From the NCBI GenBank assembly GCA_965248265.1, contig CBDFJF010000002.1, positions 1,984,001 through 2,048,000 on the forward strand: 64,000 nt of DNA. The letters are read 5' to 3'. A model generated the notes under the pieces. The model was given only the letters and a program-made list of their open reading frames with translations. It searched no databases and was not told where the DNA came from. This DNA is from Candidatus Latescibacterota bacterium. GTDB lineage: Bacteria; Latescibacterota; UBA2968; UBA8231. A program made the translations under genes and the position numbers. Shown here piece after piece: positions 36,198 through 41,264 of the stretch; position 1 is the first letter of the stretch; each line of letters starts with the position of its first letter.

Positions 36198-36866
36198 TCA
36201 GAAATCCAGCGGCAGGTTGACGACGCTTGTGTGCGAGGGAACTGTGATTACCGCGTGCTTCTCTCCGGCCGTCGGGTGCCAGGCCTTTACCGTGTAGGAC
36301 CCCGGAGGAATGTTCTCAAGGCGGAAGGCCCCAGATGAATCCGGAGCCGTGAAGAAGTGATGGTCCAGCACAACGATGTAGGCCTTCATGCGGGAGTGTA
36401 TCTCGCAGCGCACGACCACGATGGCATCCTCGTCAAAACGCACGCTGGCCTTCTCGCCGCCAGCGAAGCGGCCGAGGTCGAAACGGTCGCCGGAAACGAT
36501 GGAGAAGACGTTGTGATAGTAGTCGTCTTCGTTGGGGAACTCCACCTTCGAGCCGACCGCAATCGGCAGGACATGCGGAATAAAGCGGTCGCTATTCTGT
36601 CGCATCACCAAAGGCCCGGCGGCCGGTGTGGGGGGAGAGGAGGCAGGTGGATTTTCCAGATAGACAACCACATCGACCGGTGACGGCGCTCGTGGTGTTG
36701 GCCGTTTTGCCGACGAGCGATAAACGCCGCGGTTATATGCCACCGGTTTCTCGCGTTGAGGCGCGGCAGTCAACGATACGGTCCCCTCTATCGTCGCAGA
36801 CCGGAGCGGCATGGCGTTGAAGACCAGAGTGACGGCTATCGTGATGGCGAAAACCAGGCGCTTCAT
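36198..36866 (-). CDS. Periplasmic cupredoxin-like/carboxypeptidase-regulatory-like protein
   Basis: Signal peptide; FPNED..YHNVFS and CEIHSRM (H-C-H-M type-1 copper-like set); C-terminal G.YTVKAWHP. Confidence 0.8.
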   Translation of the reverse strand: MKRLVFAITIAVTLVFNAMPLRSATIEGTVSLTAAPQREKPVAYNRGVYRSSAKRPTPRAPSPVDVVVYLENPPASSPPTPAAGPLVMRQNSDRFIPHVLPIAVGSKVEFPNEDDYYHNVFSIVSGDRFDLGRFAGGEKASVRFDEDAIVVVRCEIHSRMKAYIVVLDHHFFTAPDSSGAFRLENIPPGSYTVKAWHPTAGEKHAVITVPSHTSVVNLPLDF

Positions 36867-38337: not shown

Positions 38338-39477
38338 CTATTTTTTCCCAGTTCTCCGAGCACGCGGGAACCGTTTGTCGAGGAAACGCCCGTTTTTCTG
38401 CAACAGTTCGCCGTCCGCGTAGATCTCACCGCCCGGACGCAGATCACAGACCATATCCCAGTGCAGGCCGCTCTGGTTGTTGCTGCCGGTCTCGGGGTAG
38501 GCGCTGCCAAGGGCAAGATGGATGGTGCCGCCGATTTTCTCGTCGAAGAGCGTATTGCGGGTGTACCGGGTGATGTTGTAATTGGTGGCGATGGCTGCCT
38601 CGCCGACGTAGGCTGAACCGCGGTCCATGCCTACCATGGCTTTCAGGAAGTCCTCACCCTTGCTGGCCTCCGCCTTGACGACGCGGCCTTTCTCAAAGGC
38701 CAATCGCGCGCCGACAACCTCCTGCCCGCCGTGCACGGCTGGAAAACTGAAGGCGATGTGCCCCTCGACACTGGTTTCCTCCGGCCCGGTAAAGATTTCG
38801 CCATCCGGGAAGTTGTACTGGCCGTCGCAGTTGATCCAGGTGCGACCCTTACAGCTATAAGTCAGGTCGGTGTCTTCGGCGACGATGCGGATGGAGCGAG
38901 CCCGGTTGAGGCGCCTTGTCAGTGCCTGCTGCGACTTGGAGATGTCCTTCCAGATCCGCACTGGATCTTTCTCGTCCAGAAAGCCAGCTCCAAAGACGAA
39001 ATTCTCATACGCCTCCAGCGACATCTCGGCGTCCTGGGCACTGGCATGACACGGCCACTGAGTGCCCACCCAACGCAGGTCGCCGCGAGCGCTGCGATCC
39101 ATGAATATCTTGTTTAACGACCGGTTGGCCTTGGATGCGAGGGCCATCTTCTTGGGATCTGAACCGCTCAGGGCTCTCGTGTTCTGGCTGCCCCAGATGC
39201 CAATCGTAGCGTCGACACTCCTAAGCTTGTGTCTGCTGTACGGATTGACCCAGGTCAGCTGCTTGGGCTTGGCGACTTCGAAGAAGATCTCCGACAGACC
39301 GTCAATGCCGATTTCCGTCATCGGATGCGCACCGCATTCCAGTGCTTCGCGGTAACAGGCCCTTATCAGTGGTGAGGCGATGGCATCACCGCGAATGATT
39401 ACCGTGTTGCCCGGCTTCAGCTTGACCGAGTAGCGGGTCATCAACTGCGCCAGCTTGTCGATACGGGGGTCAGCCAT
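38338..39477 (-). CDS. Aminopeptidase, M29 (AmpS/PepS) family
   Basis: NFPDGEIFTGP, GEAAI, TLFDEKIGGTIHLALGSAY and HWDMV motifs. Confidence 0.93.
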   Translation of the reverse strand: MADPRIDKLAQLMTRYSVKLKPGNTVIIRGDAIASPLIRACYREALECGAHPMTEIGIDGLSEIFFEVAKPKQLTWVNPYSRHKLRSVDATIGIWGSQNTRALSGSDPKKMALASKANRSLNKIFMDRSARGDLRWVGTQWPCHASAQDAEMSLEAYENFVFGAGFLDEKDPVRIWKDISKSQQALTRRLNRARSIRIVAEDTDLTYSCKGRTWINCDGQYNFPDGEIFTGPEETSVEGHIAFSFPAVHGGQEVVGARLAFEKGRVVKAEASKGEDFLKAMVGMDRGSAYVGEAAIATNYNITRYTRNTLFDEKIGGTIHLALGSAYPETGSNNQSGLHWDMVCDLRPGGEIYADGELLQKNGRFLDKRFPRARRTGKK

Positions 39478-39742
39478 CGGTGGAAGCCTTTCGGTGGTCA
39501 GCCATCTTGGTGATCAATTCATCATCGTCGGCGCTCGCCATCACCAGCTCGTAAAACGCGTCGGACGAAATCTCCGCTTCCTCCAGGAAGCGCTCGTCTG
39601 CCCCTCACGGGAATATGTAGTCCCCGAGCCGGCCGGCCTTGAGTGCACGGACCTTGTCTGAAATCCGCGCCAGCCACGGCATGTCGCCGATGACGAGGCC
39701 CCGGGCGCGTGGTTTGAAATCCAGGTTGTCTGATTCGCTCAT
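39470..39742 (-). CDS. DUF5069-like small protein, probable selenoprotein (Sec at codon 46)
   Basis: MSESDNLDFKPRARGLVIGDMPWLARISDKVRALKAGRLGDYIFP-U-GADERFLEEAEISSDAFYELVMASADDDELITKMADHRKASTDG; TGA at 39605-39607; ATG 2 nt after the upstream stop; final TGA overlaps the aminopeptidase ATG. Confidence 0.8.
39575..39592 (-). promoter_or_regulatory. Bacterial SECIS-like hairpin
   Basis: CGCTTCC-TGGA-GGAAGCG perfect 7-bp stem starting 12 nt after the in-frame TGA; G at loop position 2. Confidence 0.7.
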
Positions 39743-39744
39743 GA

Positions 39745-40845
39745 TTACTCTCTTTCCAGGAAGGAATGCACCGCTTCGCTGAATAGCGATCTGAAGTCAG
39801 CAGCGGGTGTATCGGATGTCAGTGGCGAGGAGAGGATGTCGACGAGTTGCCGCAATCTGTGCTGTGGGCGCTTCCAGGCATGAAGGAGTGCTCGGTGGTG
39901 TGGCAGGGACGGTTGCGCAAGTGAACGGCACAGCATGGCAGCCGCCTGCAGATGAAACAGGATATGGTGACCGTCGAGGGCGAAGACGCCGTCAGTAACT
40001 TCCTTGGCATATACCATGACGAACTCCGGACTTAGGGGGCATACGAATTCACCATCCTCACGACCGGCACCCAGGCTGGTCGCGTACTGCACCAGACGTC
40101 GCTCCGGCCAGTCCCAGCCGATCTTGGCGAATTCGATGAAGCTGACCGTGCCGGTGGCATCGTCAATGACGACATTGCGGGCATTGAAATCAGTACTGGC
40201 CAGCGTCGGCTCTCTCTGGCTGAGCGTCATCCAGATATCGTCCAGGCGAGCGACCAGGGCTTGTCCGGCCGAATCACGGGCCCCGCAGTGGCTGAGAAGC
40301 ACAGCCAATCCCTCTTGGGCCTCTGCTGGAGCGCTGGTTGCAACTTCGGCGTGGTGCCTGCGTGTAACAGCGCGCGACACGTGGGGAAGTAGGAGCTCGC
40401 ACTGTTCAGACAGCACATGCTCGATTCCGCAGAATCCGGCTACCAATTTCGCGGACAGATCTGGCGATATGCCGAACTCCTGGGCGTGGTCGTCCAGAGT
40501 ACGGTCCCCGCAACGCTCCAAATAGATGAAGCGAGTCCCGGGGTCGACAGCTAGAGCGCGGGGCACGAGACAACCGTGCTCTGCCAAAATGCCGAGAACC
40601 TTGGACTCAACGATGAGCAGGTCGTCGGCGGCGCCCTCTGTGGACGATCCGAAGGCCTGGTGTTTGGCGACCACGCGCGATCCATCTTCCAGTTCAACAG
40701 ACCAGACGCCTGCTGACAGTTCGTCTAGGTTGATGACAGCCTGCTGTGTTGAGGAGAAACTTGCTACATGCCGCCGGAGATAATCCTCCAGTGATTGATC
40801 GGACGGGCCGCCAGAGCTGGTGAGGTGATCGACGGCGAGGCTCAC
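39745..40845 (-). CDS. Phosphotransferase (APH/kinase-like fold), atypical motifs
   Basis: VVAK, E..VL..L, VPRALAVD, YLERCGD, TDFNARN and IEFAKIG motifs. Confidence 0.65.
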   Translation of the reverse strand: MSLAVDHLTSSGGPSDQSLEDYLRRHVASFSSTQQAVINLDELSAGVWSVELEDGSRVVAKHQAFGSSTEGAADDLLIVESKVLGILAEHGCLVPRALAVDPGTRFIYLERCGDRTLDDHAQEFGISPDLSAKLVAGFCGIEHVLSEQCELLLPHVSRAVTRRHHAEVATSAPAEAQEGLAVLLSHCGARDSAGQALVARLDDIWMTLSQREPTLASTDFNARNVVIDDATGTVSFIEFAKIGWDWPERRLVQYATSLGAGREDGEFVCPLSPEFVMVYAKEVTDGVFALDGHHILFHLQAAAMLCRSLAQPSLPHHRALLHAWKRPQHRLRQLVDILSSPLTSDTPAADFRSLFSEAVHSFLERE

Positions 40846-41216
40846 GGCAGGTCGAACACGATCACTTGGGCGGTGAGTTTGCCAGCTTGACTGTTGAAAC
40901 CTGGATTTTCATTCATGGCGAAGTGGATGACCCCATCGCGATCGGTTATGAAGTCGTGCCGACTGCCCACTGCAATCGCAGGTCCGTCGCCGATGCGGGC
41001 GATCAGGGCGCCAACGTTGACTCCGGGCATGAGGTAACCGTCGCCCGCTAAGTGATTGTAGACGCCGTCGGCACCGCACCAAACGATCTGGTTGCGCATG
41101 TCTGGCGACCACACGTCCTCCACATCGATGACGATGCGCTGACCCTTCTCTACGCGAATCAGGGTGTCCTGCCAGCTCGGGCTGGGACGAACCGTGCGGG
41201 AGATTGTCAGAGCCAT
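40842..41216 (-). CDS. LecA/PA-IL-like jelly-roll domain protein
   Basis: WQDTLIRVEKGQRI.I....W, GADG, GALIARIG and G.IHFAMNE motifs; no signal peptide; alternative GTG at 41231. Confidence 0.65.
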   Translation of the reverse strand: MALTISRTVRPSPSWQDTLIRVEKGQRIVIDVEDVWSPDMRNQIVWCGADGVYNHLAGDGYLMPGVNVGALIARIGDGPAIAVGSRHDFITDRDGVIHFAMNENPGFNSQAGKLTAQVIVFDLP

Positions 41217-41264
41217 TTGCGCTTCTTTCACTTGGCCAATAGGGTCTGTAAGTCCATCACTCGA

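Follow-up and report, generated by a model that had tools for sequence, protein, structure and literature searches.

New bacterial selenoprotein families continue to be found regularly, and the described systems closest to the one reported here are fdhF of Escherichia coli and selD, in which an in-frame UGA aligned with Cys is followed 10-13 nt downstream by a short stem-loop with G residues in a small apical loop and is decoded as selenocysteine (Sec) through selA, selB, selC, and selD. We examined a 64,000-nucleotide stretch of DNA from Candidatus Latescibacterota bacterium (contig CBDFJF010000002.1, positions 1,984,001 to 2,048,000; hereafter the window), in which a gene on the minus strand, at 39742-39470, appears alike in all of these respects. 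On comparative sequence evidence, this gene very probably encodes a 90-residue selenoprotein of the DUF5069 family.

The nearest parallel within the same genome is selD, itself a selenoprotein gene (G000:C2:1010876-1011799, plus strand; TGA in ...TCGUAAK...). In its Sec insertion sequence (SECIS) element a 7-bp stem carries a GGUC tetraloop and lies 10 nt past the UGA; in the DUF5069 gene the stem is also 7 bp long, the tetraloop is UGGA, and the distance is 12 nt. The gene differs from those of the fdhF and selD type in that DUF5069 stands outside the listed selenoprotein families and in that its SECIS element is putative. Like the selenoproteins of DUF523, DUF3179, and DUF1858, as these are presented in excerpts of PMC13188914 and PMC12013277, it is recognized from a TGA/Cys pair, a SECIS-like hairpin, and Sec-utilizing hosts. 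Unlike these single-Sec families of unknown function, it is concentrated in one class of Latescibacterota-labelled metagenome-assembled genomes (MAGs), with two Poribacteria-labelled loci, and it has neither a UxxC or CxxU redox motif nor a thioredoxin-like fold. Within DUF5069 the reference structure is PDB entry 3omd, an uncharacterized protein of Leptospirillum rubarum that shares the family and the fold and carries a Cys aligned to the Sec; the present protein departs from 3omd and from the Pfam family in its short 90-aa form and in having Sec for Cys.

The alternative that survives best accepts a real selenoprotein and holds that the family is not new but known under a different name, or recorded in a database or supplement, which we consider quite unlikely. 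A candidate is the "hypothetical protein GOS_A" of a 2008 ocean survey, for which excerpts of PMC2398784 give 2 Sec sequences, 155 Cys homologues, and no domain; it is marine, and the sequencing runs that contain our stretch are likewise labelled marine or seawater metagenome. The corresponding portion of a 2022 review (PMC9312934) still lists GOS_A without a domain yet gives Pfam DUF numbers for other families, and a DUF5069 member would probably have been labelled there. This argues against identity and sets GOS_A apart by description, not by sequences. The whole of Table 1 of a 2026 review (PMC13188914), with 119 families and their subfamilies, does not contain PF16798/DUF5069, and excerpts of the BSepDB main text (PMC13326102), which give 111 known families, do not mention DUF5069. 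A full-text literature search found neither "DUF5069" nor "PF16798". Among the matches listed for "3OMD" the term is an unrelated metabolite abbreviation, and among those listed for "Latescibacter" with "selenocysteine" none has both terms in its title or abstract. No NCBIfam model, selenoprotein-specific ones included, matches the protein at E <= 0.01. The original prediction had not recognized a characterized selenoprotein family here, and the 2026 table and the literature search agree with it. We therefore regard this, with high confidence and with GOS_A distinguished by its description, as a genuine unannotated selenoprotein gene that would constitute a new selenoprotein family using a known mechanism.

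Minus-strand positions 39742-39470 form one 91-codon frame (90 residues plus stop), interrupted only at codon 46 by a TGA (39607-39605) in the context ...LGDYIFP-U-GADERFLEE.... The ATG (39742-39740) lies 2 nt past the TAA (39747-39745) of the upstream kinase-like gene. At the other end, the read-through frame stops at a TGA (39472-39470) within ATGGCTGA, which overlaps the ATG (39477-39475) of a downstream aminopeptidase gene, the two genes sharing 8 nt. A 12-nt spacer (39604-39593) separates the internal TGA from the hairpin CGCUUCC-UGGA-GGAAGCG (39592-39575), whose perfect 7-bp stem pairs 39592-39586 with 39581-39575 around a UGGA tetraloop (39585-39582). The features described in the original prediction, including the point that only the read-through stop overlaps the next start, are all present, on the minus strand.

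In the mechanism that we propose, the UGA at codon 46 would not be read as a stop. The hairpin, with a stem of 6-7 bp and a UGGA tetraloop 12 nt downstream, would act as a bacterial SECIS element that recruits SelB with Sec-tRNA(Sec), Sec would be inserted, and translation would run on to the TGA at 39472-39470. Sequence comparison supports four parts of this reading directly: the Sec/Cys pairing, the co-conserved hairpin, the constraint after the UGA, and the presence of the machinery. From these we infer the insertion of selenium itself and the binding of SelB to the hairpin.

With Cys in place of the TGA, the read-through protein matches Pfam DUF5069 (PF16798) in hmmscan over residues 11-88, and so both before and after the TGA; it scores 53.3 bits (cut-off 27; E = 4.1e-14), and its score in the genome search (47.6 bits) is also above the cut-off. 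The earlier assignment of a DUF5069-like gene with its TGA at the conserved Cys is upheld. The TGA aligns with a Cys of full-length paralogues in the same genome (...GEYHYACPMDQ... and ...GDYEFNCKLD...), and a profile of the orthologues finds 3omd among PDB sequences (E = 3.9e-14) with its Cys at the Sec column. Among 169 domain hits from the best 150 of 639 representative clusters (E <= 1e-3), the residues at this column, as far as printed, are Cys in 113 (of 154 non-gap hits), Ser in 30, Gly in 4, Ala in 2, and Asn in 2, with a gap in 15. Among the orthologues, TGA and Cys are the only two states, and the column behaves as a Sec/Cys pair.

Orthologues were found in 34 of 41 relatives (E <= 1.9e-18), 27 of them with exactly one TGA and 7 without. 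In the 30 loci that were fetched, TGA (23) or TGC/TGT (7) always falls in the same column, and no other stop or frameshift occurs. A larger set of 80 loci, the best of 143 relatives from a scan of species-representative genomes, comprises 64 TGA forms (63 found by pattern and one, L139, by eye) and 16 Cys forms. Across 168 genomes of the phylum, 119 have the orthologue, with one TGA in 104 and no stop in 15; all belong to four families within a single class, and in the other ten families it occurs in 0 of 36 genomes. The TGA is retained down to about 41% protein identity. By their record titles the loci come mostly from Candidatus Latescibacterota MAGs, with some Gemmatimonadota, two Poribacteria (both of the TGA form), and single loci from other phyla, labels that may be unreliable for MAGs. 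A tree built by a quick method from 76 distinct cores (61 Sec and 15 Cys; 72 columns, with the trait column masked and with duplicates and the too-short row L128 left out) needs at least 6 changes between Sec and Cys. Its well-supported branches force only 1.

The hairpin follows the TGA. In the whole genome, 82 of 230,937 TGA trinucleotides (0.036%) are followed by a comparable hairpin (a perfect stem of 7 bp, capped by a 4-nt loop that has a G early on, 9-15 nt downstream), and the hairpin at this locus exceeds chance expectation. All 23 aligned Sec forms have six stem pairs and an invariant UGGA loop at the same spacing, with no indels; 92.5% of their stem cells are paired, compared with 24-65% when the partners are slid. 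Pair 18:31 shows a compensatory exchange, with C:G in 14 sequences and G:C in 9, and pair 17:32 varies among G:U, A:U, and G:C. In the set of 80 loci, UGGA is present in 63 of the 63 pattern-found TGA forms, with 6 of 6 pairs in 61 and 5 of 6 in 2. None of the 16 Cys forms combines the full stem with the loop: the hairpin is degraded, one form keeping 6 pairs with a UACA loop and three keeping UGGA with 3-5 pairs. Relatives thus bear out the perfect hairpin noted earlier, since the TGA is kept together with it and a sense codon, always Cys, goes with its degradation. The Cys form at L042 / L099 (TGT) has a full 6-bp stem with a UACA loop, and neither selA nor selB was found in its genome; it looks like a recent switch from Sec to Cys in which the hairpin has not yet decayed.

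The genome has the complete Sec machinery, as the original prediction required. Over their curated cut-offs we found selA (560.9 bits), selB (332.8 bits), selD (352.2 bits, with its own in-frame TGA), and the tRNA-Sec gene selC (68.9 bits; tRNA-SeC(tca) in ARAGORN). TGA is the commonest stop: of 2535 open frames with 400 codons or more it closes 1487, which indicates that the code is not reassigned. Among the 41 relatives, 35 have selA and 36 have selB. TGA forms are confined to genomes with selB (27 of 27), and selA accompanies them in 26 of 27, the exception being an 81% complete genome. Of the five relatives without selA and selB, three carry the Cys form and two lack an orthologue; the machinery is present in four other genomes with the Cys form. 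A genome-wide screen for TGA codons that precede a 6-bp stem with a GG-containing tetraloop and are flanked on either side by 25 or more open codons gave 28 places, of which only selD and the DUF5069 gene lie in real-looking coding contexts; this screen yielded no further Sec candidates.

The codons after the TGA are under purifying selection. In 13 non-redundant Sec forms, compared over 36 codons on each side of the UGA, the median pairwise ratio of nonsynonymous to synonymous substitution rates (dN/dS) is 0.20 upstream and 0.33 downstream, with dS about 1.3. Seven residues past the UGA (A48, D49, F52, L53, F63, V67, and D73) are invariant in 33 sequences. Independent sequence also covers the codon: a 3171-nt contig from a different study spans all 601 bases compared, with 41 differences, and a 217-nt contig from a metatranscriptome library spans 39448-39658, with 11 differences. 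No change at 39605-39607 is among the differences listed for either contig (X5 and X18), and 9 further differences lie beyond those listed. Sequencing error at the TGA is excluded by its conservation. One run contains an identical copy of the stretch and is perhaps its source. Separately, in two metagenome runs the depth rises several-fold over 39573-39614, only across the hairpin and the F-L-E-E stretch, because orthologue contigs of other organisms match there at >= 88%; low-share runs such as X7 extend no further than the conserved hairpin region and likewise derive from orthologues in other organisms. This stretch is strongly conserved at the nucleotide level.

Several observations weigh against the selenoprotein assignment. 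Besides the 9 further differences just mentioned, the contig from the RNA library may derive from DNA. Folded alone, this sequence is not significantly more stable than its shuffles (z = -1.82; 13 of 200 were equally stable), so the evidential weight of the hairpin comes from its conservation in orthologues and not from single-sequence folding. The stem overlaps the conserved F-L-E-E codons, and part of its conservation is therefore at the protein level. The Cys forms L045 and L055 encode the same F-L-E-E by other synonymous codons that break the stem or the loop, which argues against protein constraint alone as the explanation of the stem. The UGGA loop has no counterpart of the G-U dinucleotide with which SelB makes contact in the fdhF element of E. 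coli, and a search of 39400-39800 against Rfam in E-value mode gave no SECIS family, only chance snoRNA-like matches with E > 3. The Pfam match covers positions 4-81 of the 133-position model, and the protein ends at about 90 residues, without roughly the last 50 positions of the full-length domain. All orthologues share this short form, which points to a short subfamily and not to a fragment. The genome also contains decayed-looking DUF5069 fragments at C1:774422-774675 (-), interrupted by a TAA, and at C1:2365752-2365868 (+), a 55-aa open frame.

The unusual loop and the missing Rfam match would suit read-through of the UGA without Sec, whether by a near-cognate Trp, Cys, or Arg tRNA or under a reassigned code, with the hairpin merely slowing the ribosome; such read-through would also explain the open, conserved downstream frame. 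We nevertheless judge it highly improbable. The use of TGA as the commonest stop of long frames stands against it, as do the confinement of the TGA form to genomes with selB, the Cys form of all three orthologue-bearing genomes that lack selA and selB, and a hairpin geometry that matches the genome's own selD SECIS. In the orthologues, moreover, the sense alternative is always Cys (16 of 16 and 7 of 7 cases), which is the signature of Sec and not of Trp or Arg read-through. A true stop at the TGA, leaving a decaying DUF5069 pseudogene or a 45-residue peptide beside an incidental hairpin, would fit the short domain, the fragments elsewhere in the genome, the nonsignificant fold, and the ends that gene callers place at the TGA, but it is just as improbable, given a TGA in the same column in 104 of 119 orthologue-bearing genomes to about 41% identity, a downstream frame that stays open, constrained, and of the same length with no other stop or frameshift in 30 loci, a long-frame stop coupled to the neighboring genes, and a hairpin whose compensatory base-pair change decay would not preserve.

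If the gene does encode a selenoprotein, ordinary gene callers miss it or cut it at codon 45, which leaves more than 100 genomes with an unannotated protein. Among the best 150 of 639 library matches, 11 proteins have their last residue precisely at profile position 45, the pattern that gene callers stopping at the UGA would produce. A word-indexed protein collection gave 11 matches, eight of them full-length Cys forms of 89-93 aa and three of them fragments of 52-64 aa, and none has an informative name. A dedicated model would let annotation pipelines call the gene. The assignment would add a family to the roughly 119 listed in 2026 and would extend selenium use to a little-studied lineage labelled Latescibacterota. 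It also bears on DUF5069, a family of 639 representative clusters (E <= 1e-3) that has a single crystal structure and for which the full-text search found no papers: Sec almost always sits at a reactive site, so the conserved Cys before helix 2 would provide a functional handle on the whole family.

In an AlphaFold model computed from a 33-row alignment (mean predicted local distance difference test score, pLDDT, 84.5), a short beta-hairpin accompanies four helices, at 24-35, 47-55, 60-69, and 73-88; we read the product as a small cytoplasmic domain of this build. In this model U46 is at the N-terminal end of helix 2, and the Sec motif, Y-x-[YF]-P-U-x-A-D, directly precedes that helix. Residues invariant in the 33 sequences include the basic R12, R14, R26, K30, and R32, which lie outside the Sec motif, as well as Y42 and D49. 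In a Foldseek search of the PDB, the sole match with a probability of 1.00 is 3omd, with a template modeling (TM) score of 0.76 over the query and a root-mean-square deviation of 1.1 Å over 73 aligned columns.

Sec in proteins is nearly always a reactive residue, and a Cys at a helix N-terminus is typically activated. From this we infer one reactive selenolate that would serve as nucleophile or redox center on an anionic or partner-bound substrate. By the same reasoning, Sec would mark the conserved Cys of the DUF5069 family as its reactive residue. A redox or selenol-transfer role is possible, with a likelihood that we place somewhat short of even, and the redox or metal-binding role put forward in the original prediction is likewise conjectural. 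Four findings count against a functional assignment: the 30 domain hits with Ser at the Cys column, the lack of a second conserved Cys in the 33 sequences, a Foldseek search of the PDB that found only the uncharacterized 3omd (other hits had E > 4), and the contexts of three paralogous DUF5069 loci, which share no theme. Those contexts include a Cys/Met pyridoxal phosphate enzyme, a beta-helix protein, a lactonase, a zinc alcohol dehydrogenase, a MerC-like protein, Peptidase_C26, Fpg, and a radical S-adenosylmethionine/SPASM protein.

The genome holds 11 DUF5069 matches: full-length single-domain proteins, one protein with three tandem domains, and fragments. The tandem protein, of 432 aa (G000:C1:303712-304959 (+) = L146:3198-4496), has Ser at the Cys/Sec position of each domain, in a slightly longer loop (…YKYG.DSG.D…), and relatives share its architecture. 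In the triple-DUF5069 protein of one relative (L143; G008:C1:2154800-2157000, minus strand), the second domain has an in-frame TGA (…EFL-U-IDVD…) that was considered as a second Sec site and rejected, as it aligns with the Gly of the other domains and not with Cys; an error or a break may account for it, or some other cause.

Upstream of the selenoprotein gene lie two genes that form a conserved cassette with it. The order is a gene for a 129-aa protein (40842-41231, minus strand), a gene for an APH-like protein with a protein-kinase-like fold (39745-40845, minus strand), and the DUF5069 gene as the last, often with overlapping stop and start codons. Both upstream genes directly precede DUF5069 in 57 of the 80 loci and the kinase does so in 58, an arrangement common to Sec and Cys forms. 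The cassette is conserved in the family-level clade of this organism; in two more distant families the contexts of the DUF5069 orthologue differ from that in the window. The conserved order suggests that the three proteins probably act in one pathway.

The APH-like protein has a Pfam APH match below the cut-off (E = 1.4e-4). Its alignment has invariant K52, E71, D205, and N210, a pattern that fits an active enzyme of the APH/protein-kinase fold; an invariant Cys, C83, is also present (cassette of loci L034-L126). The 129-aa protein, whose orthologues are 60-78% identical, has no Pfam match, and a PA-IL-like fold, seen in 17% of the members of one neighboring Atlas cluster, is a weak lead only. 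Searches of PDB sequences with phmmer gave nothing useful for the 129-aa protein and nothing for the APH-like protein, and NCBIfam has no model for the three neighbor proteins. A complex prediction for a natural Cys-form DUF5069 protein with its own APH-like neighbor gave no answer (score 0.00) and speaks neither way.

The kinase-containing cassette nonetheless names candidate partners and is the only functional lead for the DUF5069 selenoprotein. We can imagine, as a rather unlikely possibility, that Sec marks the catalytic residue of the whole family and that in Latescibacterota the cassette encodes a selenium-dependent small-molecule pathway with the short Sec form as its third enzyme. The selenolate might, for instance, attack or reduce a phosphorylated intermediate, sugar-like or amine-like, that the kinase produces. 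If true, this would be chemistry not yet tied to selenium and a first function for DUF5069.

Downstream, the aminopeptidase gene (38338-39477, minus strand) belongs to Peptidase_M29 (Pfam E = 8.5e-88). With the weak APH-type match on the other side, this agrees with the kinase-like and aminopeptidase neighbors named in the original prediction. The peptidase is outside the conserved cassette: in none of 80 other loci does it adjoin the DUF5069 gene. A scan for promoters and terminators gave no more sites than in shuffled sequence; a promoter-like site that lies upstream of the 129-aa gene, at 41292-41265 (-), is a hint only. A 222-aa open frame at 36198-36866 (-) has matches of CarboxypepD_reg-like and cupredoxin type, all of them sub-threshold.

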